This document shows positions 28,735 to 47,706 of a stretch of DNA of 64,000 nucleotides, piece after piece. Numbering within the stretch: position 1 is the stretch's first letter; every line of letters begins with the position of its first letter. The DNA is from Candidatus Zixiibacteriota bacterium. GTDB taxonomy: Bacteria > Zixibacteria > MSB-5A5 > UBA10806. The notes under the pieces are model-generated. The model did no database searches and was not told the origin of the DNA. It saw only the letters and a list, made by a program, of their open reading frames with translations. The position numbers and the translations under genes were made by a program. The stretch lies in the NCBI GenBank assembly GCA_024641335.1, contig JAHEDG010000001.1:46910-110909 (forward strand), written 5' to 3'.

Positions 28735-31700
28735 ATGCTTCGAAATCTGGTTCGTAAATCGGTCCTGATGGTGGCGTTTTTCTGTGTATTTTGCATAATT
28801 TTTACCGGATTAACAGCCGCCGAATCGAAATCAGTTCATAAGGTTCTGTTTTCTCCTGATAGACCTGTGACCGGATCGTTGCGTATCGAATTCCCGGATA
28901 ACCGGTTAAAACCGTTGTTTGCCTATGCGGCAACTGCCGACGGTCGTTTTCCGGCATCGGCTCCGGTTGTCACCGCCGACGCCATAAACCTGGAATTACC
29001 ATCGGATCGAGGGGCAGTCACAGGCGTAGTTATCCTGGCCGAAAGCGGTTTGCCGGATCCCGATTTTTCGCGCTTGAGAATATTGTCGGGCGGCCGTGCT
29101 CTTAAGGGGTTTTTTAGTTGGTACGATGGTCTGTCGCTGGACGTTTTGAACAGTGTCACTGATAGTCTGGCCCTGGCGGAAGTCGGAGCCTCTGATACTC
29201 ATAAGATAGGATTCACTACTTCATCGCTGGCCTTGAGCGACTCGGCTATAATCTGGGTTACTTTCCCCGGCGGTTTCGATATCTCGGCCATCGGTACGGC
29301 GATCTATTCCGACAATGACCCGGCTAATAACGGCAATGAACCGCAGGTGGCCTCATGGGATAGCGTCGGGCAGACGGTTAAGTTTTTCCTGAATTCCGGA
29401 GCTCAACCGGCTGTGGTCGGTTCGAGAATATCGGTGGTATTTTCGCCGGTGACCAACGATACGGCAGCCGGCAGTTTCACAGTTGTAGCGCTGACCACCG
29501 ACTCTCTTGGCAATATTGAGAACGGCCCCGATGTTTCGGCGCCCTTTAACCTGAACCCGTCAGCTCTGGATCATATTGCCATTTCTCCATCGGCTCCGAT
29601 AAGTATTCCGGCCGATTCATCGGTTCTCTTCGATGTCAGCGGGGCGGATATATACAACAATATTATCGATACGCTGACATTCGCCTACGCCCTGACTGTC
29701 GATTCCTGCGGACAGGTTTCAGACGGGATTTTCACCGCTATCAAAGTGGGGGCCTGCTACCTGACAGCGTCAACAGGCGGCATTACCGATTCATCCGGCT
29801 TGATCACGGTCGTACCGGGGCAGATAGGCAGGTTCGGATTGAGCGGATATCCGGAATCGAGAACGGCCGGCGTCGGTTTTATCAATCCGATCAATGTTAA
29901 GGTATATGACGTTCGCGAGAATATTAAGACCGATTATCTGGGAGAAATGTGGTTTACCAGCTCCGATACTCTGGCCACTCTGCCTTATAATTCGGTTTCG
30001 CGCTACACGTTTACCGTGGGTGACCAGGGGCAGCATAATTTCGCGGGTTCCGGTTTTACTTTGAGAACCGCCGGGAATATGTATATCATGGCTACGAACG
30101 GCCCGGTTACCGATTCCACCGCCTTTATCAGGGTAAACTCGGCGGTGATAGACACTTTTCTCTTCAGTGTCGTAGCATCACAAACCGCCGGATATAGTTT
30201 CAATCTGCAGGTTGTTTCGGCCTATGATCAGTTTAATAATCCGGCATCCGGCCAGGTGATAGTCTCGTTCTCCGGCGGAACAGGCGGGAATTCCCCCGAC
30301 GGCATACCTCCGTCGCTGAATAATATCAATGTTACTTCGGGCAACGGTTCCGCCTTGCAAACCCTGACCAACGCTGTCCCGACTATTCTCGAAGGTTCGG
30401 TTTCCGGAGCGATGAGTATCGGCGATACTATTTTGGTGGCGCCGGGCAATCTGGGACGATTTACATTGGACGGTTATCCCGATTCCACTACCGCGGGAAA
30501 TGTTTTTCCGAATCCCGGAATCGATGCTACGGTCTTTGATATTTTCGGCAATCTCAAAACGAATTTCCTCGATTCGGTTTATTTCGAAAGCTCCGACACG
30601 CTGGCTGTAGTGCCGTATACCGGTTCAGGCAACTCGAAATATAAATTCGTTTCGGCCGATTCCGGTTCGCATATATTTCCCGGAGCTGGATTTATATTAA
30701 AGACATCCAATGAGCAGGATATAAGCATTACCAACGGAACAATCGCGGACACATCCAACAATATCATGGTCTGGCCGGGGCCGATCAATTCATTCATTCT
30801 CTTCGCTCCGATACCGCCGGTAACCGCGGGAACACCATTTCAGGTTACGGTTAACAATTGCCGAGATCAATGGGCTAATCCGACCGGAGGCACGGTTACC
30901 GTGACCGACAGCGTCGGGGGAGGATCATCTCCCAACGGCACGCCTCCGATATTCAATTCCATTCGGGTTGTCAGCGGCGCCGGCAGCGCGTATCAGACGC
31001 TGGTCAATATGGTCACGACGGTTTTATCCGGGGCGTCCGGTTCCATAGTGAGAGTAACCGACAGCGTATACGTCCTGCCGGGATCGTCTCTGGGGGTACT
31101 CGATCTGAATATTACCACTCCTCAAGTCAACGCCACTCCGTTTACCGGCACGGCTGATCTTACAGCTTATGATACCTATGGCAATTTGAAGACCAATTTC
31201 GACGCTTCGTCCGATAATATTACTATCTCCTCATCCGCCGGAGGGGTCATGCAGAACAATCTTTTTGATCAGGCGGGGGATTTTGTCGGCGGCGTAGTCG
31301 ATCTGGTTGCCCGGGGAACTTCATTCAATGGACGAGGAGGGGTGATGACCTTCTCGGCTGCCTCCAATTCAGGGGTAATCGGGATTTCCGACCCGGTGGA
31401 TATGCGGGCTATCTCCTGCGACAGCCTGCTGATTAACGAAGCTATCGTATCCTGGGGCGATACCGCTACCGGTATTGCCTGGGTTACCAACGACGGCGGA
31501 GCGCCGGTTGATATCACCGATATAGATGTATACACCGAATCGGGGACCACGCTCAATCCCGTATCCATAACTCCCGCGCTGCCTCACACGCTCGGTCCCG
31601 GCCTGGATAACGCCTATAATATCGCAATAGAGATTCCGATCGGTTTTACTCCCGGCATATATCCATTAACTGCCGCTGTCGCCGGGGCGTTCGGCATATA

Positions 31701-34683
31701 TCCTGTTTATGACACATTAAGCGGATTCGCCGATACCCTGGAAATCCAGCAGGCGTCGAATATAGGGTATGTCGCCGGATCACTCAACCGCGATACTCTC
31801 TCGACCGGGGAATGGTACTCCTTATCATTTAGAATCAGCAATACCGGCGATGCCGGGTTCGGAGTTCTGGATAGTTCCTTTATATATTTTACCGATACCG
31901 TCCGGGAATTTATGGCCCCGATATCCAGCGGAGTTTATGTTCCTCCGAATACTCCTTCGGGGATCCTGGCTGTTATGGATTCCGCTCTGGTCGATCCTTT
32001 ATTTGGCGAGGGGATTTACCAGGCTCAATTCATTTATTACGGCCGGGAGAACGGTCATTTTATATCCGGCTCGTTCCCGCTCAACGATTCGATCAGAATT
32101 CAGGCAAGCGCGGATATTTCTTATATAACCGGCTCTCTGAATATCGCTTCCCTGGTTCCGGGACAAAACGCTTTGTTTTCCATCCGGGTTCATAACTCCG
32201 GAGCGGCTTCGTTTATTGTGGATCATCAGAACACCAGGTTTTATTTTACCGATTCGGTCAGGGATTATATCGCCTATGCCGATACATCGTCGGGCAACAG
32301 GGTCGATATGATTACCTCTGATACCACCATACATTTTGCCCAGGCGGTGCTGCATTCGCAGTTTTCCTCGGGGATATATCAGCCCGGCATAAATCTGCGA
32401 GGGACCCAGAACGGAATATATAAGAATTTAACCCTTAATTCCTCGCCAGATTCCGTTTTGGTATCTTCCCGCGGGACATTAAGAATCGACACGACTTACA
32501 TAATGACCCGCAACGCTCCCTTCGCCAATATATCCCAACCTTGTTCATTGCTGGTCAGTGTTTCCAACGGCGGGGAGGAGGGAATAGATAATTTCGCCAT
32601 TAATCTTTTTACCGACGGCGGTTCCACAGTTCCCGCGCCGTTTACCGTCGCCCATCTCAACGGTCTGAGCTCGATCGATACGATATTTCAGATCACCTCC
32701 GGGGCGGCGCCTGATTCGAGCGAGATATTCTCAAGCTCCATATCCGGCGGGTCAGGAGAGATTATCGGACTTCCGCCGCCGATCCTTCCGCCGCTCGATA
32801 ATTACGCCCTGCTGGTTATAGAGACACCGGCAGAGCTGGCTCTTTCGCCCATAGATATTGTCTCGCCTCCGGAAGCGATGGACGACACGGTTACTATCGG
32901 GCAGAACCTTATCATTTCGGCTTCGGCAGCCAATCTCGGACAGGCCGATATTACGGGGGTTCAAAGTCTCACTCTCGATCCGGGATCGACAGGGTTCATC
33001 ATTAACGGGCCGGCGTCCCAGACTTTTATTCTCGATCAGGATCTGTTCTGGAATATAACCGCGCCCCCAAACCCGGTCAGCCTGGCCGTATTGACCATAC
33101 GTTTTACGTCATTTCCATTCGATCGCAACGACGGTTCCTCGTCGGTGGGAGCGGATTCGGTTTCCACTCGAACTTTCGAAATTGATACCAGCCCCGCGAT
33201 CAGTCAGAGTCCGGCCGTCACCGCCCCGGCCGGGGCAGTCGACCGGTTAATCTCTACCGATCAGACATTTGCCCTGACTGATACACTTGACCCGCTCGGT
33301 ATCTATTCCGGTCTTTCGGCGCTTATCGAGCTTCCCGCCGGTTTTACCACGCAAGATTCGCTTTTAAAACATCCTTCCGGGAATATTGTTCGCTGGACTT
33401 TAAGAGCTCCGTCAGTTCCGATGGATGATTCTGTGGCTGTGCACAGCTGGCTTTTCGATACCAATACCGGCGATTCAGTCGGGACAGCGGTCGATTATAT
33501 CGTCTTATCGACGGTACGGCGGGCCGATCTGAATATATCATCGAGGATAGCCGGTCCGCAGGCGGCGTTGGACGGCATCCTCGAACCGTCCTCGGAGCTG
33601 TTGTTCTCGGCCAGGGTAGATAATAACGGTACGGCCGCGGCAGGTACAGGCCGATTGCTTTTACATTTAGGCAGCCCCGATATGATCTCTCAGGAGCCGC
33701 TGGTCAGGGATTTCACCCCAGGCGTACCGGTACAATGGACCATTACGGTTCCGGATACCGAAAGCGTGGTTCCGATACCGATCTGGGCCACCATAGATTC
33801 CATACCTGATGACGTGAACAGTAATCTGCCGTCATTCGTATCCAATGATCTTTCCGGTGTCACTGTGACAGTGAAGGAGCTGCTGCCTCAAATGGCTGTT
33901 ATCCCCCGCGCGGCCTATTCGGGATCGGTGGTCAAAGGGCAGGAGTTGGTTTTTCTTTCATTCGCCATACGTGACAGGGACAGGGGAGGTTCCTATTCAG
34001 TGGGAGTGCTCGAATTAAGTTTCGGTTTACATTCCAGCCCGGTGGCGGATATTTACAGTCTTTTCTCCAGCGCGTCTCTAAGCTGGGATGCATCGTTCGT
34101 GGAAGCCGCGACCGGAACACCCGGGTTGATGAGTTTTGTTTTCCCGGATACCATTGTTCTGGGGCCGGGAGAGACCATAGAATTCGATCTTAATATCACA
34201 ATTTCCGACAGCGCCCCGGCCGTGGACTTTTCGCTGGCTCTGGATGGGGAGGATATCTTAGGGGTTGCTTTCGATAACGGCATCCCCACAGCCGGATTGA
34301 TCGGCGTCTCCTCAACCGGAGACCCATTGCTCTGGGAAGGGAATCCCACGGTTATTCTCGATGCCGATTTCTCCTCTTCGGTATCCAGCTATCCCAATCC
34401 GTTTAATCCCGATAACGAGGCGGCCAAAATAGGATATTACCTGGCGGCCGCTTCTGATCTTGAAATTAGAATATTCACCCTGCTCGGCGAACTGGTATGG
34501 ACGAAGAGTATCGGCAAAAGCGACGCTCTTGGCGGAGCGGGTCTGCATACCGGGGATTCGGCATTATTATGGTACGGCAAGAACGATTCCGGATATGAGA
34601 TTAATTCCGGAGTTTATATCTGCATAATAAAAAATATTACTACCGGCGAGGAGGAGAGATTCAAAATCGCGGTCGTAAAATAA
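28735..34683 (+). CDS. Giant (1982 aa) cell-surface protein with repeated Ig-like modules and T9SS-type C-terminal sorting domain
   Basis: Signal peptide. About three repeated modules 'G(Y)P(E/D)S(R/T)TAG...V(Y/F)D(V/I)..N.KT(D/N)(Y/F)L...(F/W)..SSDTLA..PY'. C-terminal 'SYPNPFNP...GELVW...WYGKNDSG...SGVYICII...FKIAVVK' matches the Por secretion tail. Confidence 0.75.
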   Translation: MLRNLVRKSVLMVAFFCVFCIIFTGLTAAESKSVHKVLFSPDRPVTGSLRIEFPDNRLKPLFAYAATADGRFPASAPVVTADAINLELPSDRGAVTGVVILAESGLPDPDFSRLRILSGGRALKGFFSWYDGLSLDVLNSVTDSLALAEVGASDTHKIGFTTSSLALSDSAIIWVTFPGGFDISAIGTAIYSDNDPANNGNEPQVASWDSVGQTVKFFLNSGAQPAVVGSRISVVFSPVTNDTAAGSFTVVALTTDSLGNIENGPDVSAPFNLNPSALDHIAISPSAPISIPADSSVLFDVSGADIYNNIIDTLTFAYALTVDSCGQVSDGIFTAIKVGACYLTASTGGITDSSGLITVVPGQIGRFGLSGYPESRTAGVGFINPINVKVYDVRENIKTDYLGEMWFTSSDTLATLPYNSVSRYTFTVGDQGQHNFAGSGFTLRTAGNMYIMATNGPVTDSTAFIRVNSAVIDTFLFSVVASQTAGYSFNLQVVSAYDQFNNPASGQVIVSFSGGTGGNSPDGIPPSLNNINVTSGNGSALQTLTNAVPTILEGSVSGAMSIGDTILVAPGNLGRFTLDGYPDSTTAGNVFPNPGIDATVFDIFGNLKTNFLDSVYFESSDTLAVVPYTGSGNSKYKFVSADSGSHIFPGAGFILKTSNEQDISITNGTIADTSNNIMVWPGPINSFILFAPIPPVTAGTPFQVTVNNCRDQWANPTGGTVTVTDSVGGGSSPNGTPPIFNSIRVVSGAGSAYQTLVNMVTTVLSGASGSIVRVTDSVYVLPGSSLGVLDLNITTPQVNATPFTGTADLTAYDTYGNLKTNFDASSDNITISSSAGGVMQNNLFDQAGDFVGGVVDLVARGTSFNGRGGVMTFSAASNSGVIGISDPVDMRAISCDSLLINEAIVSWGDTATGIAWVTNDGGAPVDITDIDVYTESGTTLNPVSITPALPHTLGPGLDNAYNIAIEIPIGFTPGIYPLTAAVAGAFGIYPVYDTLSGFADTLEIQQASNIGYVAGSLNRDTLSTGEWYSLSFRISNTGDAGFGVLDSSFIYFTDTVREFMAPISSGVYVPPNTPSGILAVMDSALVDPLFGEGIYQAQFIYYGRENGHFISGSFPLNDSIRIQASADISYITGSLNIASLVPGQNALFSIRVHNSGAASFIVDHQNTRFYFTDSVRDYIAYADTSSGNRVDMITSDTTIHFAQAVLHSQFSSGIYQPGINLRGTQNGIYKNLTLNSSPDSVLVSSRGTLRIDTTYIMTRNAPFANISQPCSLLVSVSNGGEEGIDNFAINLFTDGGSTVPAPFTVAHLNGLSSIDTIFQITSGAAPDSSEIFSSSISGGSGEIIGLPPPILPPLDNYALLVIETPAELALSPIDIVSPPEAMDDTVTIGQNLIISASAANLGQADITGVQSLTLDPGSTGFIINGPASQTFILDQDLFWNITAPPNPVSLAVLTIRFTSFPFDRNDGSSSVGADSVSTRTFEIDTSPAISQSPAVTAPAGAVDRLISTDQTFALTDTLDPLGIYSGLSALIELPAGFTTQDSLLKHPSGNIVRWTLRAPSVPMDDSVAVHSWLFDTNTGDSVGTAVDYIVLSTVRRADLNISSRIAGPQAALDGILEPSSELLFSARVDNNGTAAAGTGRLLLHLGSPDMISQEPLVRDFTPGVPVQWTITVPDTESVVPIPIWATIDSIPDDVNSNLPSFVSNDLSGVTVTVKELLPQMAVIPRAAYSGSVVKGQELVFLSFAIRDRDRGGSYSVGVLELSFGLHSSPVADIYSLFSSASLSWDASFVEAATGTPGLMSFVFPDTIVLGPGETIEFDLNITISDSAPAVDFSLALDGEDILGVAFDNGIPTAGLIGVSSTGDPLLWEGNPTVILDADFSSSVSSYPNPFNPDNEAAKIGYYLAAASDLEIRIFTLLGELVWTKSIGKSDALGGAGLHTGDSALLWYGKNDSGYEINSGVYICIIKNITTGEEERFKIAVVK

Positions 34684-34787
34684 TACCGGCTGCCTTTCTC
34701 CTGGCGGCCGCGGTATTTTCCACAGTCCATTCACAGGGGGATTCGGGCCGGGAATCGCCGTTCTCCTTAGGCGCCGGGGCCAGAGGT

Positions 34788-36515
34788 ATGGGCATGGGGC
34801 ATGCCTATGTTTCCCTGTCGGGCGACGCTTCCGCGCCGTTCTGGAATTCGGCCGCTATCGCCGGAATCGACAGGCCGGAGTTTATGGCTTTCCGAACTAC
34901 CCTGTTTTTGGAAACTAATTACGATTGCCTCGGTTTTTCATATCCTATGGAAAATATCGGCGTTTTTTCGCTCTCCCTGGGGAGAATAGGCGCGGATAAT
35001 ATTCCCCGCAGGGATCAATTCAACAGGCTGATAGATACCTTCTCATCATCCGAGACACAGCTGGGTTTGAGCTATGCCCGCGATATCATTTATGGACTTA
35101 ACGGAGGGATTACAATCAAGGCTGTCTCCAAGGATATCGGCGGCGCGGCGGGAGCCGGGACCGGAGCCGATCTGGGGTTCCAGTTTTCCCCTCCATTCGC
35201 GGAATATATCACCCTGGGGATGGGGTTCAATGATCTGATTCGGCCGGGGATAAAATTGTTGTCGGCCCAGGATAAATACGCCACAGTCTCTCGTTTCGGT
35301 ATAGCTTCATCCAATAAAGTCGGCGATAAATTCCAATTCACCGAAAGCCTGGAGCTTAATTCGTCGGCAGGACGCAAAACCAGGTTTATGATCGGGGCGG
35401 AGATGGCTTATACCGGACAATATTTCCTCCGGGCCGGTTATAATTATGAGCGGATCACATTTGGCGCGGGAATTATTTACAGATTCATTAAACTCGATTA
35501 TGCGTTCGAGAATTACGAATTCCTCGGCGCCAGCCATAAAATATCATTCGGTGTGTCGTTCGGAAAATCAGTCGGTTTGAGCAGGGAAGCTCGTCTGGCC
35601 GGAATGGTGGAAAAGGAAAGAAAGAAGTGGGAGGCGAATCTGGCCGGCAGGCAATCGTTGGCGGCGGATTCGATAGTGATTGTTGCGGATAGTCTTTTAG
35701 TTAACGGGCAATATCAGGAGGCTCTATTCAACTATGAGAAATCCCTGGCCCTGGACAGCGGTTCAGAAAAAGCTCGAGTTATGGTCGACAGCGTAATGAA
35801 CCTGATCATTTTCAATTCTATCAGGAATGTCTCTGACAAGAAGCGCGAAGAGCTTATCGCCGGCCGGGTGCAATCGGCCCTCAATGATCAGAAAGCGGGT
35901 CTTTTCAACGACGCTATTCTGAAATACAATCTTCTAATCGAGATCGATCCCGGCAATAAAGCTCTTACCGATCTTCTGAAAGCGGCCCGTAACGCCCGGA
36001 CAGCGGAAATCACCAGACGAAGAGAACAGGCCCGGACCCGTCAGGAACAAGGCGATCTGACCGGAGCGCTGGCCGAATGGAATCAGGTATTATCGCTCGA
36101 CAGAAACGATGCTATGGCTCGGTCTCAATCCGAGATAGTTTTAAAACAGATGAGAGCCAACGATCTGGTGGCCGCGGCTGTGGCCAGTGTGAATGAGGGT
36201 AATTTCGAACGAGCCGCCGACTATCTTAGCCGGGCGCAGGAATTGAAGCCGGATGACAGATCCATAAGGAACCTGCTTATAGATACCCGTTCGAAATCGG
36301 TTCCCCCGACATCGTTGGAGGATATAAAAGCCAATTCGGAGCATTGGTCGATTTATATCTCGGCGTTGGAAAGTTACCAGGCCAGCGATTATAACAAAGC
36401 GATCGAGACCTGGGAAAGGCTCAGAGATTTCTATCCCAATAATCCCGATCTTGAGAAAAATATCAGCCAGGCCAGGCAACGGTTATCCGCTCAAGGCGGA
36501 AACTCCCGAGATTAA
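34788..36515 (+). CDS. PorV/LptO-like outer-membrane beta-barrel fused to C-terminal TPR-like helical domain (true start probably upstream, non-canonical)
   Basis: 'GMGHAYVSLSGDASAPFWNSAAIAG' resembles the N-terminal motif of PorV/UPF0164-type OMPs. The beta-barrel half ends at 'LDYAFENYEFLGASHKISFGVSFG'. A second half of about 300 aa has TPR-like helical repeats. An in-frame signal peptide lies upstream with no ATG/GTG/TTG (see findings). Confidence 0.5.
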   Translation: MGMGHAYVSLSGDASAPFWNSAAIAGIDRPEFMAFRTTLFLETNYDCLGFSYPMENIGVFSLSLGRIGADNIPRRDQFNRLIDTFSSSETQLGLSYARDIIYGLNGGITIKAVSKDIGGAAGAGTGADLGFQFSPPFAEYITLGMGFNDLIRPGIKLLSAQDKYATVSRFGIASSNKVGDKFQFTESLELNSSAGRKTRFMIGAEMAYTGQYFLRAGYNYERITFGAGIIYRFIKLDYAFENYEFLGASHKISFGVSFGKSVGLSREARLAGMVEKERKKWEANLAGRQSLAADSIVIVADSLLVNGQYQEALFNYEKSLALDSGSEKARVMVDSVMNLIIFNSIRNVSDKKREELIAGRVQSALNDQKAGLFNDAILKYNLLIEIDPGNKALTDLLKAARNARTAEITRRREQARTRQEQGDLTGALAEWNQVLSLDRNDAMARSQSEIVLKQMRANDLVAAAVASVNEGNFERAADYLSRAQELKPDDRSIRNLLIDTRSKSVPPTSLEDIKANSEHWSIYISALESYQASDYNKAIETWERLRDFYPNNPDLEKNISQARQRLSAQGGNSRD

Positions 36516-36602
36516 ACTTTACATGCTCCCGGCTTATTCCTAATATTAACGGCGGAGGTTTATTGTAGAAGTATGGCCAGAAAGCCGATAAAAGAGGTTT
36601 TC

Positions 36603-39488
36603 ATGAGCTTTCCCGCAGACGAGGGACAGCTCGAGGATATCCGAAGCAGCATACGCAATGTCCTGACGGAATCCGATCTTTCCAGCAAGGATATCAACGG
36701 CGTACTCCTTGCTATTGAGGAAGTCTGTACCAATGTCATCAGGCACGCTTATCTCTATGGCCCCGGAACTATCAGGATAAAAGTAAAACTGTACCATGGG
36801 CGGGTCTCTTTCTCCATATTCGATAAAGGCCGCAAATTCGATTACGATCATTCCGAAACCCCTGATCTGAACCGCTATATCAAAACCGGCCGCAAAGGCG
36901 GCCTGGGGTTATATCTGATCCGCAAGATGATGGATTCTGTGGAGTATTATTCCCGCGATGGCGAAAACGAACTGCGTATGGAAAAACAGGCCGACAAACA
37001 ACCGTCGAGAACTATCAGGGCTCCGGGCGTTTCCATCAGGGTGAAATTTTCTCTATGGGCGTCGCTGGTCGTCTTCGCCATCGTTACCAGCGTATTTATC
37101 TACATAGATAAGAGAACCGCCGAAGGAGCCACGGCCAGATTCTTCAAAGGCGCCTCCGATGTCATGGATTCATTTGTTTCCGATATCGGCGATAAGATCA
37201 TCTTCAAGGATGTAGATCTCTCCAAATCTGCCGAAGCCTGGCTGAAAGCCAATGAAAGTTTCACTTACCTGGTAGTAACCGATACTTCCGCGACTATAAT
37301 CGCCGATCCTAATAATCCCCGGAAGTTTCTCTCCAGATATGAGCCTATCCCCGAAAGCTACTATAACAACGACATAGCGGTTCAGGATTCATCGGGTATA
37401 AAAGCGTTCCATTACAAGAACACGGTGAAGCTCAACAACAATATCGTCGGATACGCCTATTTCGGAATTCTGGAATCTCCTCTGTTGGTGGAAATCGCCA
37501 ACGCCCGGCGGGGGTTATTTATAATCGCCATATTCGGTTTGATTGCCGGTTTCGTGGCGGTCTTCATGCTATCCAATTATTTTGTGAAACCGATTCAGAA
37601 GCTTACCGAAGGGGTGCTGAGAATAGGCGACGGCAATCTCGACCAGACCCTGCCGGTGGAGGGCGCCGATGAGTTTGCCGAGATAGCTATGGCATTCAAT
37701 GAGATTACCAACAAGTTCAAAAAATCGCAGGTAAACCTGGTCGAACAGGAACGTCTGCAAAAGGAAATGCAGGTGGCCCAGGAAATCCAGCATGCCCTTT
37801 TGCCTCGCAAATTTCCGGATGTCGAAGGGTACGATATCTCCACTATCTACCGGGCGGCCAAGGACGTGGGCGGAGATTATTTCGATTTCGTCAGGATCGA
37901 CGAGCATTCCATGGGGATAATCGTGGCCGACGTTTCCGGTAAAGGTGTTCCCGGGTCTCTGGTTATGACCATGATTCGAACGGCCCTGCGTTTGGAGTCG
38001 AGAGAAAACTATTCTCCCACATCCATCCTGAGCAAGGTTAACAAGTTCGTGGCCGACGATGTCAAGAAGGGAATGTTCATTACCATTTTCTTTATCACTC
38101 TGGATTCCCGAAAACGAACTATCTCTTACGCTTCCGCTGGTCATAATCCCATGATTCTATTCAGGAAAGATACCAATTCCTGCTATTTCCTCAATACCCG
38201 CGGAATGCCGCTGGGGATAAGCCTGCCGGACGATATCGCCTTTGAGGATTCTCTCCAGCATGACAGTGTCAAGCTGAAGAAAGACGATATGCTGGTGATC
38301 TACACCGATGGTATTACCGAGGCGATGAATAATTCCGGTCAGCAGTACGGCAACGACCGTCTGATCGAATTCATAAAAGCCAATTCCGAACTTCATCCTG
38401 AAGAGTTCACCAAAAAATTAGATGCCGATATCAACCGGTTTACTGCCGGAGCGCCGCAAAACGATGATATCACCCTGGTTGTGATTAAGGAAAAGATCAT
38501 GCTCGACGAGATAGTTTTCCAGCAGAGAAAACGTTTGATCGAGATGGTCGAATATGAGGGTATTTCAGCCGAGGATGCCTGCAAGGAGGCCGGGGTTTCC
38601 ATTTCGACCTATTATAAATACCGCCGCCGCTGGCAGAGGCTGGGTGACGCGGGATTACTGGATAAGAAGCTCAGGGCCGATTCCGGCATGAAGCAGATTC
38701 CCTATGAGGCTCGCAAGGAGATCCTCAATATAGTCAGAACTCACCCGGAATTCGGGGCCAAGAGAATAATCGATGAGGCTCGGAAAAACGGGATAGCTGA
38801 TCTGGATATGCGCGGTTTAAGCGAAGAGCTGACTCGCATGAGACTCAACACCAAAAAACTCCGTCTGGAATATGTGGAGAGAATGGGAGCTATGTCTCCC
38901 GATATGAGAGCGGAACTCGATAAGGAGATACTCAAGGATAAGGAGAAGAAAGAGCAGATCGACCGCGACGCCTATCTCGAGCAGATCAAGAAAAGCATCA
39001 GCGATAAGGCCCTGGAGGTTCCGCAGGGCTCCGATGAGGAACTCGAAAAGCTCAAGAGCCTGGAAACTGCTTTAGGAGATACGGGACTGTACAGCGATAT
39101 AGCCTCCGAACTGGGCAAACTCGGAGGAGGAAAAGATATCGCCGGTCTTTTCGAAAAGATGATACTGAAAATGGCCGAAGCTAAAGTGGATGAGGCTGAA
39201 ACCAGGGGAAATCCGGCCGAAGAAACAAATGATCAGGCGGCCGATCTGAACGTCTCAGAGTCGAAGGATAGCTTCCCGTCTCCTGAAGAGCCGAAAGAAA
39301 CAGGCGATTCCGAAGACAATGCCGGAAAACAGCCCGAGTTGGCGCCACAAACCCTGCCGGAATCGGACGCCACGCCTATCGACGTGGTCGACGCTGCTTC
39401 AGAGAATGACAATGCCGGCGAAGAAGAAGAACAGTTGGATTGGGACAATTACAGCAAAAAGCTTCAGGAAAAATTCGATAAAAAATGA
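36603..39488 (+). CDS. Multidomain membrane signalling protein: RsbW-like anti-sigma Ser/Thr kinase (HATPase) + TM + periplasmic sensor + TM + HAMP + PP2C/SpoIIE phosphatase + transposase-like HTH + acidic tail
   Basis: N-terminal 'LLAIEEVCTNVIRHAY...GGLGLYLIRKMMD' (HATPase_c_2). Two TM segments flank a ~130-aa loop. HAMP 'IQKLTEGVLRIGDGNLDQTL'. PP2C 'GGDYFDFVRIDEHSMGIIVADVSGKGVPGSLVMT...DMLVIYTDGITEA'. HTH 'GISAEDACKEAGVSISTYYKYRRRWQRLGDAGLLDKK...HPEFGAKRIIDE'. Start at 36603 (AAAGAGG RBS) is preferred over the track start 36573. Confidence 0.7.
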   Translation: MSFPADEGQLEDIRSSIRNVLTESDLSSKDINGVLLAIEEVCTNVIRHAYLYGPGTIRIKVKLYHGRVSFSIFDKGRKFDYDHSETPDLNRYIKTGRKGGLGLYLIRKMMDSVEYYSRDGENELRMEKQADKQPSRTIRAPGVSIRVKFSLWASLVVFAIVTSVFIYIDKRTAEGATARFFKGASDVMDSFVSDIGDKIIFKDVDLSKSAEAWLKANESFTYLVVTDTSATIIADPNNPRKFLSRYEPIPESYYNNDIAVQDSSGIKAFHYKNTVKLNNNIVGYAYFGILESPLLVEIANARRGLFIIAIFGLIAGFVAVFMLSNYFVKPIQKLTEGVLRIGDGNLDQTLPVEGADEFAEIAMAFNEITNKFKKSQVNLVEQERLQKEMQVAQEIQHALLPRKFPDVEGYDISTIYRAAKDVGGDYFDFVRIDEHSMGIIVADVSGKGVPGSLVMTMIRTALRLESRENYSPTSILSKVNKFVADDVKKGMFITIFFITLDSRKRTISYASAGHNPMILFRKDTNSCYFLNTRGMPLGISLPDDIAFEDSLQHDSVKLKKDDMLVIYTDGITEAMNNSGQQYGNDRLIEFIKANSELHPEEFTKKLDADINRFTAGAPQNDDITLVVIKEKIMLDEIVFQQRKRLIEMVEYEGISAEDACKEAGVSISTYYKYRRRWQRLGDAGLLDKKLRADSGMKQIPYEARKEILNIVRTHPEFGAKRIIDEARKNGIADLDMRGLSEELTRMRLNTKKLRLEYVERMGAMSPDMRAELDKEILKDKEKKEQIDRDAYLEQIKKSISDKALEVPQGSDEELEKLKSLETALGDTGLYSDIASELGKLGGGKDIAGLFEKMILKMAEAKVDEAETRGNPAEETNDQAADLNVSESKDSFPSPEEPKETGDSEDNAGKQPELAPQTLPESDATPIDVVDAASENDNAGEEEEQLDWDNYSKKLQEKFDKK

Positions 39489-40228
39489 TAAAACTGGCAA
39501 TTCTGACTTCCAAAGGCGGTACCGGCAAGACAACGACCGCTATTAACCTCGGACATGGTCTGGCTTTATCGGGAAAACGGGTATTGCTTGTGGACTGCGA
39601 TCCCCAGGGATCGGCGTCCTCCGCTTTCAATGTCAATTCCGATAAAGGGCTGGTCGATCTGATGATGAATAACACGGCGGATATCTTTAAGGTCCGGCCG
39701 AATTTCTATCTTTTGCCATCCGGCCGCAAGAGGCTGGCCGATCTGGAGATGAAAATAGCCGCCATGCCGGATCGGAATAATATCCTCAGCAGGTCTCTTT
39801 CCCGGCTTTCGGGGTGCGATTATGTAATTTTAGATTGCTCTCCGTCGATAAATGTCATAAATTTAAACGCCTTAGAATATGCCGATTACTTATTGATCCC
39901 TTCTTCGCTGGATTACTTTTCGCTGGAAGGGGTCAAGACGACGATGGAGATAAAGAGAGAAATGAGCGCTGGCAGGAACGGATCCCTTGAGATTGTCGGA
40001 GTATTGCCGACATTTTATGATAGGAGGACGACTATTTCCAGACTGGCCCTGGAGAATCTCAGGGATAATTACGGTGATATGGTGCTAACCACGGAAATTA
40101 GAAACAATGCTCAGATAAAAAAGTCTCAATGGCATCGGAAAACAATATTCGAGTACGCCCCTTACTCCTACGGCGCATACGATTATTTTAACCTGTCAAA
40201 GGAGATTTTGGAAAGGCTGGGGGATTAA
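39485..40228 (+). CDS. ParA/MinD-family P-loop ATPase
   Basis: Deviant Walker A 'KGGTGKTT'. 'LLVDCDPQGSAS' and 'VILDCSP' motifs. ATGA overlap with the upstream gene. Confidence 0.85.
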   Translation: MIKLAILTSKGGTGKTTTAINLGHGLALSGKRVLLVDCDPQGSASSAFNVNSDKGLVDLMMNNTADIFKVRPNFYLLPSGRKRLADLEMKIAAMPDRNNILSRSLSRLSGCDYVILDCSPSINVINLNALEYADYLLIPSSLDYFSLEGVKTTMEIKREMSAGRNGSLEIVGVLPTFYDRRTTISRLALENLRDNYGDMVLTTEIRNNAQIKKSQWHRKTIFEYAPYSYGAYDYFNLSKEILERLGD

Positions 40229-40234
40229 AAAGCT

Positions 40235-40954
40235 ATGAGCGATATCAAGATATCTCTGGACAGTTCCGCTTCGGAAGGAGCTATCTCGGTAGTCAGGGTG
40301 GACGGGGTTATCGATACCATGACCGCCCCGGAGTTGGAAAAAGTCATGAACTCCCTGCTGGAGCAACGGAAATATAATATCATTGTCGATCTGGGAGGGG
40401 TTGACTATATCTCCTCGGCCGGTTGGGGTATATTTATTTCCAATATCCGGGAGATCAGGCAAAATGCCGGGGATATTAAGTTGGCCAGGATGATCCCCAA
40501 TGTCTATGAGATATTCGAGCTTCTGGAATTCGATTCTATTCTCAGAGCGTTCGATACGCTGGAGAAGGCCAAAAATGACTACGATGCGGCCGGAGGTAAA
40601 ATACCAGTCTCCACAGCGGTGGCTGCCGGACAAATCTCGGGCCAGGCTTCGCCCGAATCCAAACCCGCTGATCCGGCCGTTCCGCTGACCCCCATAGACG
40701 ATGGGAGTCCGAAGGAGTTTTCCGGTTCCAAGCCTCAAATGGCTCCGTCGTCGCCCGGAATTCACGCGGTGGTTCTCGAGCTGGTCAATAAGGACCCGTT
40801 TTTCAGCATCTCCGAAATAAAGAATGAGGTCAACAGAAGACAGCCGCAGCATAAGGCCGGGTGGTGGAAGATATGGTCGATTCTCAAGGAACATAAACTC
40901 CTTAGCAAGAAAAGCCGATATCGCAGAGCGAGGACCCAATCCGGGGATAAGTAA
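40235..40954 (+). CDS. STAS-domain anti-sigma-factor antagonist (SpoIIAA/RsbV-like) with ~120-aa C-terminal extension
   Basis: STAS core 'ISVVRVDGVIDTMTAPELEKVM...IIVDLGGVDYISSAGWGIF' with the conserved phosphorylatable Ser in 'YISSAG'. Pro/Ser-rich linker followed by a basic C-terminal segment. Confidence 0.75.
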   Translation: MSDIKISLDSSASEGAISVVRVDGVIDTMTAPELEKVMNSLLEQRKYNIIVDLGGVDYISSAGWGIFISNIREIRQNAGDIKLARMIPNVYEIFELLEFDSILRAFDTLEKAKNDYDAAGGKIPVSTAVAAGQISGQASPESKPADPAVPLTPIDDGSPKEFSGSKPQMAPSSPGIHAVVLELVNKDPFFSISEIKNEVNRRQPQHKAGWWKIWSILKEHKLLSKKSRYRRARTQSGDK

Positions 40955-42777
40955 TGAGTAATTCCCCCCTGTCCAAGGCTTATATAGCCCTGTTTATTAT
41001 ATTAGGCGCGGTATTGCCCGCGGTCATTTATTTTGCCCCGTCTTTTTCGATTGCCGCCGGATTGGGGGCAGGGATATTGATTGTCATGGTTTCGATATCG
41101 TTAAGCCTGCTGAAAACAGTCCGGGAATCGGCGCTTGTCAGCAGTTTGTATGACCACGAACGCGCTCGGGAATGGTCGCTGGCCCCGAAGCTTTTATCCG
41201 AGATTGCCGCTGATAACGGCCAGAATAAGCGGCTGGATTTAAAGATCGCGGAATTGCTGAAAGATAAGTTTCAGTTTGCGAATTTCGCCATATTCTTCAG
41301 GGAGGGGCAGAAGTATGAACCCTGGGTTTACTCCGGCATATCTTCCCGCCGCCTCGGTTCTCCCAAGGCCTTTCTTTTAAGGCAGTATTTCAGAGGAATT
41401 AAGGAAAACGGCTCGGTTTCGACCGACGAGAGAATCCTGAGGCTGCTGTTTAAAAACCACTCCGATGACGATTTTGAATTTTCCTATTCCTTCGTCTATC
41501 AATGGGATCGCTCCCGGTCAATTATTCTGGTTGCCGGAAAGCCGGCGGATCTTATGGCCGACGCTTTGAAAAGCCCTGACTTTAACAGGACTTTATGGCC
41601 GTTTCTGGATTCCCAGCTGCGTCAGGGGATGTATCACGAAAAAATCCAATCGGAGCTCAAACGGCAGAGAAACGGCTATTCCCAAACGAAACGGGAGAAC
41701 GCCGATCTCAATAAAGAACTTAATAACAGGCTTTTGAATTTAAATTCATTTGTAAAAATATCCGGCGACCTATATTCTATTTTCAATGAGGATCAATTGT
41801 TCGCCACGCTGAAGGAAGTTGTCAAAGGCCAGCTGGGAGCCGATAAAACCGGGATTCTACATCCCACCGGCGAGGGTCATTTTGCTCTGGACGACGGTGA
41901 CATACAGCCCGAATTGAAATTAATATTGGATTCCGAATCGGAATTTTTCAGTTTGCTGGCTAAAAATCCCAAGCCGGTGCTTTTGCCTCTGGCTGCTTCA
42001 GGACTCAAGAAGGACGAGCCGTTTATCAGCGCGGCGTTGGGAAATGGTTACCAGGCCGCCTGTTCCATCAGGGTGGGAGACAAGCAGGGAGCGGTTCTTT
42101 TGGTCGGGTCGAAGAACGACAAAACTCCTTATTCTCAGTTCGCCCTCGATTCCCTTTCCATTATCACCAATATCGCCTCGCTGGCCCTGGAGAATATCAG
42201 GCAATATTCCACTATAGAGAAACTCTCTTATACCGACAGCATGACCGGGATCTACAACTACCGTTATTTTTATAAACGACTCAGCGAGGAAATTCTCAGA
42301 TCCAAAAGGTATGACCGTGAACTTTCGCTGGTGATTCTGGACATAGACAATTTCAAGATATTCAACGATAACTACGGCCATCAAACCGGCGATTTGATCT
42401 TAAAGCAGATATCGCGTCTGATCATGGAGACCATACGATCCATCGACGTGGTCAGCAGGTACGGCGGGGAGGAATTCTGTATAATAATGCCCGATACCGG
42501 CGAGGATAACTGCAATATTTTTATCGAGAGATTGAGAAATGAGATCGCTAATTTCAAATTCAAGTCCGAATCTGTCGATGTCAAAACGCCGGTTACGGTC
42601 TCGGTCGGAGGGGCGATATTTCCAGGGCACGCCGAAACTCCGGACAGAATTATCTATTGCGCCGACATGGCCCTTTTGAAAGCCAAATCGATGGGGCGTA
42701 ATAAAGCCATAATGTTTCAACCGGGGCTTTTGGAACAGGAGAAATCCTCAATTGGGAGGTTCGATGATAACTTATAG
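40954..42777 (+). CDS. Membrane-anchored GGDEF diguanylate cyclase with N-terminal sensory region
   Basis: Two N-terminal TM helices and a ~380-aa cytoplasmic region. GGDEF domain with active site 'RYGGEEF' and I-site 'RSID' five residues upstream. Confidence 0.85.
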   Translation: MSNSPLSKAYIALFIILGAVLPAVIYFAPSFSIAAGLGAGILIVMVSISLSLLKTVRESALVSSLYDHERAREWSLAPKLLSEIAADNGQNKRLDLKIAELLKDKFQFANFAIFFREGQKYEPWVYSGISSRRLGSPKAFLLRQYFRGIKENGSVSTDERILRLLFKNHSDDDFEFSYSFVYQWDRSRSIILVAGKPADLMADALKSPDFNRTLWPFLDSQLRQGMYHEKIQSELKRQRNGYSQTKRENADLNKELNNRLLNLNSFVKISGDLYSIFNEDQLFATLKEVVKGQLGADKTGILHPTGEGHFALDDGDIQPELKLILDSESEFFSLLAKNPKPVLLPLAASGLKKDEPFISAALGNGYQAACSIRVGDKQGAVLLVGSKNDKTPYSQFALDSLSIITNIASLALENIRQYSTIEKLSYTDSMTGIYNYRYFYKRLSEEILRSKRYDRELSLVILDIDNFKIFNDNYGHQTGDLILKQISRLIMETIRSIDVVSRYGGEEFCIIMPDTGEDNCNIFIERLRNEIANFKFKSESVDVKTPVTVSVGGAIFPGHAETPDRIIYCADMALLKAKSMGRNKAIMFQPGLLEQEKSSIGRFDDNL

Positions 42778-43777: not shown

Positions 43778-45361
43778 TTGAGCAACTCCGAAAAACAGGT
43801 TGATATCAGGGAATACTGGGGAGTAATCGTCAGGCGCAAAGCCGTACTTATTTTGCCCTTGATTATTGTCCCGCTGATCGCGCTGGCCGCCAGTTATTTT
43901 CTCGCGCCGGTATATATGTCGTCGGTCAGTATTATGCTCGGGGAATCACGGATTCTGCCCCCATCGGTGGAACGTCAACTCGAAGGACAGCCGTCTTATT
44001 CGAGAATCTCCAATCTGGAAAGGCAGAGGTCATACCAGAACCAGATAACTTCCACCAAATACCTGCGGCGGCTTATAGCCGTACTTGATATCCCCATAAA
44101 CGACCAGATCAGGCAGGTAGCGGCTCAAACCAAAGCCCTATACCCTGAAATCTCCGAGAACGAACTGGCCGAGACTATCCTGGCCAACGGTCTCGGGAAA
44201 AATGTAGTAGTCGAGCTCAGCGCCCACGATCTGCTTCAGATCTCATTCGAGGCTTCCGACCCGGTTTCGGCTCAGAAGAGAGCCAAGGCCCTGGCTGATA
44301 TCTTTATCGAGGAGAGCCTGGCTAACGAACTGGCCGGGATCAGATCGAATATCACTTTCTCGGAAGAACAACTGGCATTTTATCGGGATAAACTGAAAAC
44401 CGCCGAGGAGAAACTGACCAATTTCCGTCAGCAGCTTTTGGTCAGCGGGGTGGCGGAAGATACCAGCGGATACAGTCTGCTGCAGATAGTTTCTGCGGCC
44501 GAGGCTCTGGATCTGGAGATCTCTGTTCAGGAGAGTAAACTGCTCGATTTGCGGGCGAAGATGATTTCGGATAAGGTCGATGTCGGCAAGCTGAATATCC
44601 CCAATGAGCTGCAGGCGGCCAAAGATCAACTTTTGAAAACTATAAGCAAGCTGACCGATCTTATAACCAAACACAGCTGGCGCGATCCCAAGGTCCTGAA
44701 TCTCAATGAGGAAGCCAGAATCATGCTGGCCGATCTCAATACCAGAATCAAGGGGGACGTGAACCGCAGATACGCCGATCGTTCGGAATCGATCAGGGAT
44801 AATATCGCCGCTTATCTGATCGGGCAGTTGAATCTCGATTTCAACCGGGAAAAAAGGATTACTCTGGATAAAAGCATCGGACGGATAAAATCCCAGCTTT
44901 CGAAAAATCCGGATTCAGAAATTACCATGGAGCGGCTGCGCAGCGAAATCGATAATTACAAAACCCTTTATGATCTTTTCGTGCAGCATTCCCAGTACGC
45001 CGCCATAGATCAATCGGCCAAGAAAGTTGAGGCCGAAGCCAAGTATATTATTATAAAGCCGGCGTCTCTTCCGCTGATCCCTGAGTTCCCCAATAAAATC
45101 AAGCTTCTGCTAATGGGTTTTGTACTCGGTTTGATATTGGGGGGAGGAGTGATCCTTCTTTTGGAGATCATCGACAGCTCGTTTAAGAAAGTAGAGGATG
45201 TCGAGGAATATCTGAAGCTAAGGGTGGTCGGAACTATCCCGAAAATCGCTCTGCCTTACGGTTCAGGGTTTAAAAAGAAAATACCTGTTTTGATCGGCGC
45301 CGGTATAAGTTTTATTTTGGTGCTTTTGATCATATTTTTAAATTTTAGGAAGAACGGTTAA
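43778..45361 (+). CDS. Polysaccharide co-polymerase (Wzz/Wzc-like chain-length determinant, no kinase domain)
   Basis: N-terminal TM, long coiled-coil periplasmic region, and a C-terminal TM with 'PASLPLIPEFPNKIKLLLMGFVLGLILGGG' (GNVR-like). Confidence 0.75.
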   Translation: MSNSEKQVDIREYWGVIVRRKAVLILPLIIVPLIALAASYFLAPVYMSSVSIMLGESRILPPSVERQLEGQPSYSRISNLERQRSYQNQITSTKYLRRLIAVLDIPINDQIRQVAAQTKALYPEISENELAETILANGLGKNVVVELSAHDLLQISFEASDPVSAQKRAKALADIFIEESLANELAGIRSNITFSEEQLAFYRDKLKTAEEKLTNFRQQLLVSGVAEDTSGYSLLQIVSAAEALDLEISVQESKLLDLRAKMISDKVDVGKLNIPNELQAAKDQLLKTISKLTDLITKHSWRDPKVLNLNEEARIMLADLNTRIKGDVNRRYADRSESIRDNIAAYLIGQLNLDFNREKRITLDKSIGRIKSQLSKNPDSEITMERLRSEIDNYKTLYDLFVQHSQYAAIDQSAKKVEAEAKYIIIKPASLPLIPEFPNKIKLLLMGFVLGLILGGGVILLLEIIDSSFKKVEDVEEYLKLRVVGTIPKIALPYGSGFKKKIPVLIGAGISFILVLLIIFLNFRKNG

Positions 45362-45364
45362 TTT

Positions 45365-46483
45365 ATGTCCGGCACAGGTTACTCCGATAAAATAAAACAT
45401 CTCGACCGGGAGTATCTCGTTCAAACTTCAATCAACGGTCAAACCCGGTCTATCAATGTTTCTATTTTCCATTCCGGGCAGCTGATAAGCGGTCGGGTTT
45501 TTCCGCACCCTGATAATCTGGACGATCAGGGTCTGGCTGAATACACCCTGGAAATTCACAGACAATATCGCGCTGATTTCGCTTCGCTACTCGGCCTGAT
45601 CGAAAAAATGAAAGAATCTGACCGCCCGGATATCATAGGCAAAATAGGTATGACACTTTATTCTCGGAAACTCTATAACGAGGGACTGGAATTACTGGCA
45701 TCGGCGGTGGAGAAGCACCCTGAGAATTCCGGGCTGAAAATGATCATGGGGAAATTGCTTTTGGCTACCGGACGGTTCGCGGAGGCTCAGGCAAGCCTCA
45801 AATCTGCGGTGGATCTTTCGCCGGAATATCCCGATTACAGGAATCTTTTGGGCGTTGCCTGCCTCAGATCCGAAAAGCCCGTGGAAGCTATTGCCCAATT
45901 CAAGAAGGCGGTGGAGTTGAATATCTATTTCGACCAGGCTCATTTCAATCTCGGACTGGGGTATATTCTTAACGGCATAGTCAAAGAGGATTTCGAACTG
46001 GCCAGAAATCTCAAGGCAAACAGCATCGAGGCGTTCGGCAAAGCGGCCATGTTTAATCCCCGCCTGATCTGCGACGAGTATAAAAAGGGGCTGGCTCTGC
46101 TGGAAGAAGACAAACTGGAAGAATCATTCGCCATTCTTGCCGATATAGCCGAAAATCCCGATATCGAATCGCCCAAAGAAAGACTGATGGAAATGTACTT
46201 GCGGTATGTTCATGGCGAAAACGGTGTAACGGAAGATGGAATCAAAGATTATATCGAGAAAATTCAAAATCTCCTGAAAGCCAGCCCGGCTTACGCCGAT
46301 TTGCAGAATGAACTGGGTATGGCCTATACCATAATGGGGAAATTCATGAGAGATAAGGCTATCGAACACTTCAAAAAGGCGCTCGATGTCAATCCGCGTT
46401 TTTCCCGCGCCAATAAAAATCTGAGGCTTTCGGAGAACGACTTGAAAGGTTTCGAGGTGCTTCTGGAGGCTATCCTCAAATGA
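45365..46483 (+). CDS. TPR-repeat protein
   Basis: Several TPR-like repeats ('AIAQFKKAVELNIYFDQAHFNLGLGY', 'AIEHFKKALDVNPRFSRANKNL'). Confidence 0.7.
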   Translation: MSGTGYSDKIKHLDREYLVQTSINGQTRSINVSIFHSGQLISGRVFPHPDNLDDQGLAEYTLEIHRQYRADFASLLGLIEKMKESDRPDIIGKIGMTLYSRKLYNEGLELLASAVEKHPENSGLKMIMGKLLLATGRFAEAQASLKSAVDLSPEYPDYRNLLGVACLRSEKPVEAIAQFKKAVELNIYFDQAHFNLGLGYILNGIVKEDFELARNLKANSIEAFGKAAMFNPRLICDEYKKGLALLEEDKLEESFAILADIAENPDIESPKERLMEMYLRYVHGENGVTEDGIKDYIEKIQNLLKASPAYADLQNELGMAYTIMGKFMRDKAIEHFKKALDVNPRFSRANKNLRLSENDLKGFEVLLEAILK

Positions 46484-47187: not shown

Positions 47188-47706
47188 TCAGATCCGTTAA
47201 ATTATCCGCATGCATTCTTTTTGCAATGTTTTGCATAATGGAATTATATGATCTATGTTTTAGTATTGGCCGCAATTATCGTTTTGGATCTGGGGAGCCT
47301 CCCTGTATTTTTGTGCCACCATAAGGTGTTATAAGATATAAAGATATAAGCGTTAAAATTATCTTGGGCGGTTAGATATATATTCTTTTGTCAAGACAGC
47401 GTTGTGGCAGCGAATTTGCGATTACATTTCCATAATTAAGGTGAAACTAATTTTGGAGAGTAATTTTTGAGATACCAAAGTCCTGTCGCAAATCCACTAG
47501 CCCACTACTGGGAAGAAGAGTTTATAGGGTTTTGGGGTCAATGGCTGAGATTCCGTGCAGGATCTCAACGGTTGCTCTACTATTTTCTCGGTGAGTTGGT
47601 ATTTGCCAATATCTATCTGCTTTTGGAGAGTATTGCCAACCATACCGTTATCTCCGCAGGACATTCGATAATCGTCAGGGTAAAATATAAACTTCACCCA
47701 TCGGTA

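Follow-up and report, generated by a model that had tools for sequence, protein, structure and literature searches.

Why should a membrane-bound protein phosphatase carry the DNA-binding part of a transposase? The question is raised by a 64,000-nucleotide stretch of DNA from a Candidatus Zixiibacteriota bacterium (contig JAHEDG010000001.1, positions 46,910 to 110,909; hereafter, the window), in which an initial annotation, made from the sequence alone, had placed a transposase-like helix-turn-helix (HTH) domain behind a membrane PP2C phosphatase. Both peptides quoted in that annotation are present in an open reading frame (ORF) of 971 residues, and the architecture that it described, a membrane sensor bearing a kinase, a phosphatase, and an HTH, was borne out by Pfam and hydropathy. 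Our answer, to which we give about an even chance of being right, is that this protein is a partner-switching regulator of hybrid type, anchored in the membrane, whose transposase-derived module binds nucleic acid as its output or anchor. The gene and its parts, down to the HTH module, are as follows.

36573..39488, plus strand: whole gene of the hybrid partner-switching sensor (kinase, transmembrane segment, sensor, transmembrane segment, HAMP, PP2C, HTH, tail), 971 residues, from the ORF and Pfam
36609..36986, plus strand: RsbW/SpoIIAB-like serine kinase domain (HATPase_c_2, PF13581), residues 13-138 (Pfam 1.3e-28, full profile)
37044..37580, plus strand: first transmembrane segment (~158-178), periplasmic sensor (~179-313), and second transmembrane segment (~314-336), from hydropathy windows
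37569..37703, plus strand: HAMP domain, residues 333-377 (Pfam 1.3e-11)
37902..38489, plus strand: SpoIIE/PP2C phosphatase domain (PF07228), residues 444-639 (Pfam 3.9e-50)
38511..38894, plus strand: exapted IS481-type bipartite HTH module, residues 647-774 (Pfam, NCBIfam, hhalign, and AlphaFold2 [AF2])

The module comprises a first subdomain (HTH1, residues ~651-699), a linker (KKLRADS), and a second subdomain (HTH2, ~706-775) ending in RLNTKKLRLEY. Among the Pfam families that the initial annotation had proposed for comparison, HTH_28 (651-699) and HTH_23 both scored over the gathering score, whereas HTH_32 at residues 679-738 stayed under its cut-off (28.5 versus 33.7 bits); weaker matches were to HTH_Tnp_1, LZ_Tnp_IS481, and TnsD. 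The resemblance of residues ~650-760 to the N-terminal HTH of IS481/IS3-type transposases was upheld, with IS481 as the best family: NCBIfam model NF033577 aligned residues 651-762 with its positions 1-111 of 284 (E 2.6e-14), and the IS630 (2.6e-6) and IS3 (1e-4) models scored far worse. A tblastn search of plasmids with the module found 22 records at ~30% identity, in which all annotated matches were “IS481 family transposase.” When the profile of the window family was compared by hhalign with an HTH-plus-rve transposase from metagenome locus L016, it matched residues 6-132 of the latter (97.6%, E 2.7e-12) and ended just short of the rve core (156-259), which places the limit of homology at sensor residue 774. 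Since the alignment spans the N-terminal head and stops before the rve core, the captured piece corresponds to the entire DNA-binding head and nothing more. The module shares with IS481 heads an S(R)xxxYxW/Y helix, a PxYG turn, and an LNTxKxRLEY helix. Structure prediction, also suggested in the initial annotation, gave a confident model that was all-helical and folded as two subdomains, with a predicted local distance difference test score (pLDDT) of ~90. Its fold matches were the DNA-binding domains of TnsB, MuA, Pax6, and ArgR/DeoR, all weakly significant, and the C-terminal 329 residues had no significant sequence match in the PDB.

The statements that no integrase/DDE domain follows and that no inverted repeats flank the gene both proved correct: rve/DDE models had no Pfam match at E<=1 in the whole protein or in its C-terminal 329 residues, and no inverted repeats were found around the sensor gene. 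There was no second copy of the module within the window, and a 26.5-kb repeat search for insertion sequence (IS) ends, operator-like repeats, and parS-like sites gave chance-level matches only. The complete C-terminal region recurs in 12 metagenome-assembled genomes (MAGs) of Candidatus Zixiibacteriota or binned near them, and full-length Zixibacteria orthologs measure 961-981 residues with 65-71% identity. Across the genomes and metagenomes that carry the same fusion at the same position, the module is 50-57% identical and retains invariant residues. The lack of rve and of terminal repeats, together with this vertical conservation, identifies the region as a domesticated module, as had been proposed, and not as an IS insertion. 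The locus with the transposase used above and its companions (L016-L019) belong to MAG OZ244870.1, which has at least three full copies, identical in their protein matches, of a 295-residue IS481-like transposase (HTH_28, HTH_32, and rve), along with one shorter related copy. This element looks like an active IS and, of the mobile relatives found, has the head nearest to the module.

An exhaustive profile search with the module returned 1100 cluster representatives at E<=1e-3. Architectures were sorted for the best 150 of these 1100 and for the first nine homologs, and comprised the following groups.

PP2C-fused group, ~76 members: kinase-(Cache)-HAMP-PP2C-HTH with varied C-termini
GT2-fused group, 57 members: two tandem N-terminal HTH modules, with 9/9 sampled proteins running on into a processive GT2 glycosyltransferase
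True transposase group, 1 member: HTH and rve

The C-termini of the PP2C-fused proteins consist of the Zixibacteria tail, of three STAS domains, or of a long linker ending in TPR repeats. What had been called an unusual protein is therefore one member of a large family, which is spread over Zixibacteria, Candidatus Krumholzibacteriota (the source of one STAS-fused member), and many uncultured lineages. In a neighbor-joining tree, admittedly crude, all 76 PP2C-fused modules and eight fragments formed one clade that holds no GT2-fused or transposase module. This single clade points to one old exaptation, and the PP2C-fused modules are likely to descend from a single ancient capture of an IS481 head. 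Such a clear ancient case in bacteria is of interest because the domestication of transposase DNA-binding domains is far better documented in eukaryotes. The GT2-fused proteins (P0052-P0102, 500-2900 residues; also locus L022, 8001-11615) include at least one from a Bathyarchaeia archaeon.

The architecture of this family is hidden by public annotation, in which its proteins are labeled “transposase,” “RsbU/anti-sigma regulatory factor,” or “anti-sigma factor antagonist”; pieces of the C-terminal region are likewise called “transposase” in the annotation of the Joint Genome Institute (JGI). In metagenome assemblies L001 and L003, assembly frameshifts split the sensor gene, in L003 inside the HTH module, which accounts for the stand-alone “transposase” calls at these loci and is an annotation trap for the family. 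Our literature searches found no paper describing the kinase-sensor-PP2C-HTH architecture. A partner-switching system that incorporates a transposase DNA-binding head is widespread in poorly studied phyla and apparently undescribed.

The N-terminal two-thirds of the protein contains the elements of a sensory partner switch. Its kinase domain also matched the NCBIfam RsbW model, under the cut-off (3.1e-20). The periplasmic region of ~135 residues lies between two hydrophobic segments, so that the kinase, HAMP, PP2C, and everything C-terminal of them are placed in the cytoplasm. This region aligns with that of homolog P0025, where the equivalent part matches sCache_3_2, making it Cache-like in relatives. 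The motifs DVSGKG, YTDG, and DDIT (metal-binding motifs) can be read in the PP2C domain, a predicted phosphatase whose nearest NCBIfam model is SiaA (NF038263; 2.2e-22, 79.4 bits versus a cut-off of 700). No Response_reg domain was matched in the sensor by Pfam, and the space between both enzyme domains is occupied by the transmembrane segments, the periplasmic sensor, and HAMP.

The substrate of such a switch would be a STAS protein, and one is encoded two genes downstream of the sensor.

40235..40954, plus strand: STAS protein with a STAS domain (residues 1-118; Pfam STAS 6.7e-17), a disordered linker (124-171), and an HTH2-type domain (176-237)
40760-40945, plus strand: HTH2-type domain of the STAS protein, residues 176-237, from AF2 and a hidden Markov model (HMM)

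The STAS domain is SpoIIAA/RsbV-like, with a target-normalized TM score (TMt) of ~0.9, and is nearly invariant among orthologs, with a fully invariant DYISSAGWG block. The C-terminal domain of ~60 residues forms four helices in the AF2 model (pLDDT ~95) and is conserved in orthologs; it is an HTH2 domain related to that of the sensor, which the initial annotation had missed. Metagenome loci, scanned with a narrower alignment of PP2C-fused modules since the broad alignment was too diverse, gave a consistent picture. Wherever the sensor is unfused (60/60 loci), the downstream STAS protein has an extension of 98-124 residues ending in an HTH2-matching domain, and for 21 of those loci the HTH2 match was obtained directly with the sensor-module HMM (E 1e-5 to 2.5e-8). 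For sensors of the form kinase-HAMP-PP2C-HTH-3xSTAS, on the other hand, none of the free STAS proteins carries the extension (6/6). In every case, then, STAS is physically linked to an HTH of the IS481 type, which is either the sensor module, in cis, or a domain on its own tail.

For the STAS protein of the window, the link to HTH2 was made via STAS proteins of other lineages. An HMM of their extensions matched its residues 178-235 (E 1.2e-6), which was the sole match in the six-frame translation of the window, and the same HMM also matched the HTH2 of a real transposase. Direct comparison of the Zixibacteria STAS alignment with the sensor C-terminus by hhalign was not significant. Foldseek with the STAS model gave STAS-domain matches only and none naming the fold of the C-terminal extension, and a word-indexed search with this extension alone found one protein.

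Behind the HTH module, the sensor continues with a tail that is followed without a gap by a gene for a ParA-like ATPase.

38898..39206, plus strand: conserved helical region, residues 776-878, a long helix followed by an LGDTxLYxEIAxELxKLxGG block (alignment A1, AF2)
39207..39428, plus strand: acidic disordered linker, residues 879-952 (pLDDT <50, charge count, alignment A1)
39429..39485, plus strand: conserved C-terminal peptide EQLDWDNYSKKLQEKFDKK, the last 19 residues (alignment A1, AF2)
39485..40228, plus strand: ParA/MinD-family ATPase, whose start codon overlaps the sensor stop (ATGA)

The final ~200 residues had been described as acidic and low-complexity. This holds for residues 879-952, a linker of ~75 residues with variable sequence, a net charge of -19, and pLDDT <50 (residues 235-310 of the modeled segment), but not for the conserved helices at 776-878 (segment residues 134-236 in the AF2 model) or for the Lys-rich motif at the C-terminus. 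The helical region is specific to the Zixibacteria subfamily, given that an HMM of the tail matched almost only Zixibacteria-type proteins. The peptide EQLDWDNYSKKLQEKFDKK is Lys-rich and amphipathic and is a predicted helix (pLDDT ~75) in which W315, Y318, L322, and K325 (A1 numbering) are invariant or nearly so. Its motif, [ILV]-[GDN]-W-x-x-Y-[GS]-x-[KR]-L followed by Lys/Arg, also ends distant relatives whose C-termini are otherwise different.

Every Zixibacteria locus has the ParA gene, with 70-83% identity. Its product has a deviant Walker A motif, read as SKGGTGKTT, and matched Pfam AAA_31 (1.5e-38) and also CbiA, as well as the NCBIfam models ParA_partition (3.2e-27) and BcsQ (6.4e-19), both under cut-off. 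The C-terminus of this protein is unusually Tyr-rich, FEYAPYSYGAYDYF. The idea that the ParA-like protein is the tyrosine kinase of the polysaccharide locus was dismissed, since 46480-47187 encodes a BY-kinase of its own that scores above the NCBIfam cut-off. The motif and the ParA gene occur together in Zixibacteria and at loci L020, L024, L027, L028, L090, L100, L108, L109, and L110, and in all motif-bearing lineages the ParA-family gene overlaps or abuts the sensor stop codon. In contrast, where the motif is lacking and the downstream sequence can be read (65/65 loci), there is no ParA within 6 kb and the STAS gene comes directly next. From this distribution, we infer that the peptide may be the ParA contact site. 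ParA/MinD-family ATPases are known to use short basic partner peptides (the ParB N-terminus, MinE, and BcsQ partners), and here, too, the ATPase gene adjoins a partner ending in a short Lys/Arg-rich peptide on a flexible linker. To our knowledge, a C-terminal peptide with a W-x-x-Y-G core matches no known partner motif.

Taken as a regulator, the system could work as follows. The periplasmic, Cache-like sensor and HAMP would set the balance between the RsbW-like kinase and the PP2C phosphatase, both of which are predicted from sequence to act on Ser60/61 of the STAS protein. The HTH module would still bind nucleic acid and would serve, with the homologous HTH2 of STAS, as output or anchor; the phosphorylation state of STAS would decide whether STAS-HTH2 is held at the sensor or free. 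The HTH domains would take the place that a sigma factor has in classical partner switches, and their targets may be the adjoining adhesin/PorV, cyclic di-GMP (c-di-GMP), and exopolysaccharide (EPS) genes. At the C-terminus, the helical spacer and the acidic disordered linker would present the short basic amphipathic peptide, which may recruit or stimulate the ParA-like ATPase, and this translationally coupled ATPase would position the complex. The link between tail motif and ParA thus suggests how a signaling complex may be positioned in the cell. In several partner switches that control biofilm and polysaccharide production, the STAS protein has no known molecular output (PMC3843225, PMC4517449); here, the sensor enzyme and STAS both carry a recognizable nucleic-acid-binding domain, which offers a concrete and testable output.

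The HTH is read as a nucleic-acid-binding output because the basic residues in its predicted recognition helices are strongly conserved across the PP2C-fused clade. Across the 76 PP2C-fused modules, 18 positions are Lys/Arg in at least 60% of sequences, including recognition-helix positions 40, 42, 43, 89, 113, 119, and 122 of the predicted helices; four of them are also basic in true transposases, and the Zixibacteria alignment contains 17 basic residues with no or almost no variation. Several observations weigh against this proposal and likewise keep the one-component DNA-binding regulator suggested by the initial annotation at the level of a hypothesis. The net charge of PP2C-fused modules averages +5 (+5 here) compared to +14 to +18 in transposases, which is compatible with weakened DNA binding; GT2-fused modules range from +10 to +18. 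Intergenic footprinting between the upstream genes revealed a promoter as the only conserved noncoding element, and no operator. Transcriptional control may be supplied by the histidine kinase and sigma-54 regulator encoded upstream, and SypE/SypA, the closest studied analog, acts post-transcriptionally (PMC3843225). Finally, the co-occurrence of motif and ParA gene has 0 discordant cases, a correlation that shared ancestry may inflate. A stronger form of the proposal appears doubtful to us, namely that these proteins constitute a class of partner switch free of sigma factors, with an HTH given to both the kinase/phosphatase and STAS by one ancient capture, DNA binding itself being switched, STAS phosphorylation gating a composite HTH complex on DNA, and the peptide passing this complex to ParA beside the PorV-linked adhesin/EPS machinery. 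If true, transposase domestication of the Pax/CENP-B type would have a bacterial counterpart that is part of a signaling pathway.

A possible, more tentative explanation than a nucleic-acid-binding output is that the module has lost DNA binding and instead docks the HTH2 of STAS, or the sensor's own kinase domain, to tether the substrate, as a noncovalent equivalent of the three STAS domains fused behind the module in other members. The output would then be post-translational, for instance STAS activating the adjacent diguanylate cyclase, as for HsbA/HsbD or SiaC/SiaD. The perfect either/or, with STAS fused behind the sensor HTH or bearing HTH2, fits docking as well as it fits the output model, and docking would also agree with the reduced positive charge of PP2C-fused modules, the SiaD-like GGDEF gene directly after STAS, the post-transcriptional action of SypE/SypA (PMC3843225), and the fact that neither footprinting nor the repeat search found a DNA site. 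It fits poorly, however, with predicted recognition helices whose basic residues are strongly conserved, at some positions common to real transposases, and the C-terminal extension of Zixibacteria STAS has no significant direct profile similarity to the sensor module. We also know of no precedent for HTH2-HTH2 docking in IS481 heads, which counts against docking.

Quite unlikely, in our estimate, is that the HTH acts as a ParB-like centromere or nucleoid adaptor whose DNA binding lets ParA place the membrane signaling and secretion machinery along the nucleoid. An adaptor would suit the usual pairing of ParA-family ATPases with a DNA-binding partner of the HTH or ribbon-helix-helix type, the conservation of the ParA gene here together with its translational coupling to the sensor, and the BcsQ-like profile match over the full ParA length. 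Nevertheless, the HTH is present in both ParA-positive and ParA-negative classes, including the 65 loci without ParA within 6 kb, and ParA tracks the C-terminal peptide; the HTH is therefore not a ParB-like partner, and this idea was rejected as the principal explanation. Moreover, no ParB-type (ParB/Srx) domain was found in the sensor by Pfam, nor were repeated parS-like sites in the 26.5 kb searched. An artefact or accident, be it an in-frame IS481 insertion, an assembly chimera, or a functionless decaying remnant, could invoke the JGI “transposase” labels on C-terminal fragments but is refuted by the recurrence of this fusion, identically placed, in 12 genomes and many metagenomes, with invariant residues, an intact frame, and neither rve remnant nor inverted repeats, the L001 and L003 splits being assembly frameshifts.

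Compared to the mobile elements from which the module derives, residues 647-774 match IS481-family transposases along the full N-terminal DNA-binding region but differ in having no rve/DDE, terminal repeats, or mobility, in being a single syntenic copy of lower charge, and in lying inside a signaling protein. The proposed regulator has its design principle in common with Bacteroidetes hybrid two-component systems and ToxR/CadC-type membrane-tethered transcription factors, in which a membrane sensor, signaling enzymes, and a DNA-binding domain share one polypeptide and neighboring polysaccharide-related genes are controlled. Those systems differ in using a His-Asp phosphorelay or none, in their AraC- or OmpR-type folds, and in showing no homology to the proteins described here.

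Among partner switches, the classical RsbW/RsbV/RsbU and SpoIIAB/SpoIIAA/SpoIIE systems have the three domain families in common with this locus, and STAS superposes on SpoIIAA and RsbV (TMt ~0.9). Unlike in those systems, kinase and phosphatase are here fused and membrane-anchored, the sensor and STAS carry an HTH, and the operon has no sigma-factor gene: a Pfam scan for sigma factors had no match in the operon, in 10 larger upstream ORFs, or in the larger downstream ORFs to 56230, with about ten window ORFs of >=200 residues and the rest of the genome outside the scan. SypE of Vibrio fischeri is a cytoplasmic protein with a central receiver (REC) domain, and we know of no HTH reported in SypE or SypA. 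No ParA coupling has been described for this pair either. As in the present system, the kinase and PP2C of SypE are in one polypeptide and act on a separate small STAS protein, SypA, yet SypE is a response regulator and the input here is a transmembrane sensor with HAMP (PMC3843225). The two loci are also alike in their EPS genes (Wza, Wzz, and a priming transferase) and in a nearby histidine kinase and sigma-54 regulator; the upstream pair in the window recalls SypF/SypG of the Vibrio syp locus.

Several known partner switches dispense with a sigma factor and control polysaccharide or biofilm output, among them SypE/SypA (PMC3843225, PMC4517449), HsbR/HsbA (PMC6482189), and Anabaena HenR/All4160 (bioRxiv 10.64898/2026.04.08.717354). 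In the HsbR/HsbA/HsbD and SiaA/B/C/D systems of Pseudomonas aeruginosa, a phosphatase/kinase pair similarly acts on a small switch protein that governs a diguanylate cyclase and biofilm (PMC6482189). SiaA is a membrane HAMP-PP2C protein, and SiaA and SiaD are the best NCBIfam neighbors here. Their scores are nonetheless so far under the cut-offs (79 versus 700 and 153 versus 290 bits) that the proteins are not orthologs, and the Hsb and Sia systems have no HTH, ParA, or PorV-like neighbor.

The surroundings of the sensor gene are conserved as well across the 12 genomes, in the fixed order Ig-repeat giant, PorV/PorQ-like protein with TPR, sensor, ParA, STAS, GGDEF, and Wza wherever contigs reach. 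The remaining features of this block are listed below.

28735..34683, plus strand: secreted immunoglobulin (Ig)-like repeat protein of 1982 residues, a putative adhesin, which heads the conserved block (ORF)
34788..36515, plus strand: PorV/PorQ-family beta-barrel and TPR protein (NCBIfam PorV_fam, 96.4 bits, cut-off 90)
36518..36546, plus strand: sigma-70-like promoter TTTACA-17-TAATAT, within the 57-bp gap that precedes the sensor gene (consensus scan)
40954..42777, plus strand: diguanylate cyclase with a large N-terminal region (Pfam GGDEF 2.1e-43)

Both hexamers of the promoter are kept in the orthologous gap of 10 aligned Zixibacteria loci. The gene directly before that of the sensor is the PorV/PorQ-like one in all metagenome loci whose sequence is long enough to tell (59/59), as it is in each Zixibacteria locus extending beyond the sensor gene on its upstream side, and the Ig-repeat gene is syntenic in Zixibacteria and in distant loci. 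The apparent 104-bp gap between these two genes (34684-34787) shows, in 12 loci, the kind of conservation seen in coding sequence, indicating that the PorV/PorQ-like gene probably starts upstream of the ATG at 34788, with a non-ATG start right after the preceding stop. In the diguanylate cyclase, the GGEEF site is intact and accompanied by an RxxD I-site (RSID, five residues upstream). The protein matched the SiaD-like NCBIfam model NF038266 at 7.7e-45 (153.2 bits versus a cut-off of 290), its ~420-residue N-terminal region had no Pfam match, and in some relatives, such as that at L028, the equivalent gene encodes a GAF-GGDEF protein.

Farther downstream, at 43778-48366, are genes for a Wzz-like chain-length determinant (whose nearest NCBIfam model is of the XrtA/PEP-CTERM type, under cut-off), a TPR protein, the BY-kinase mentioned above, and a Bac_transf priming transferase, which together mark a Wzx/Wzy-type EPS locus. 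Upstream on the same strand, 17915-21294 encodes the PAS histidine kinase and the sigma-54-dependent response regulator (REC-AAA-HTH_8). The window also contains two 300-nucleotide direct repeats (52601-52900 and 53106-53405) that are 71% identical and 505 nucleotides apart; the first lies inside 52102-53518, a stretch without an ORF of >=200 residues, and the second reaches to ~115 nucleotides from the next such ORF (53519-54151, minus strand).

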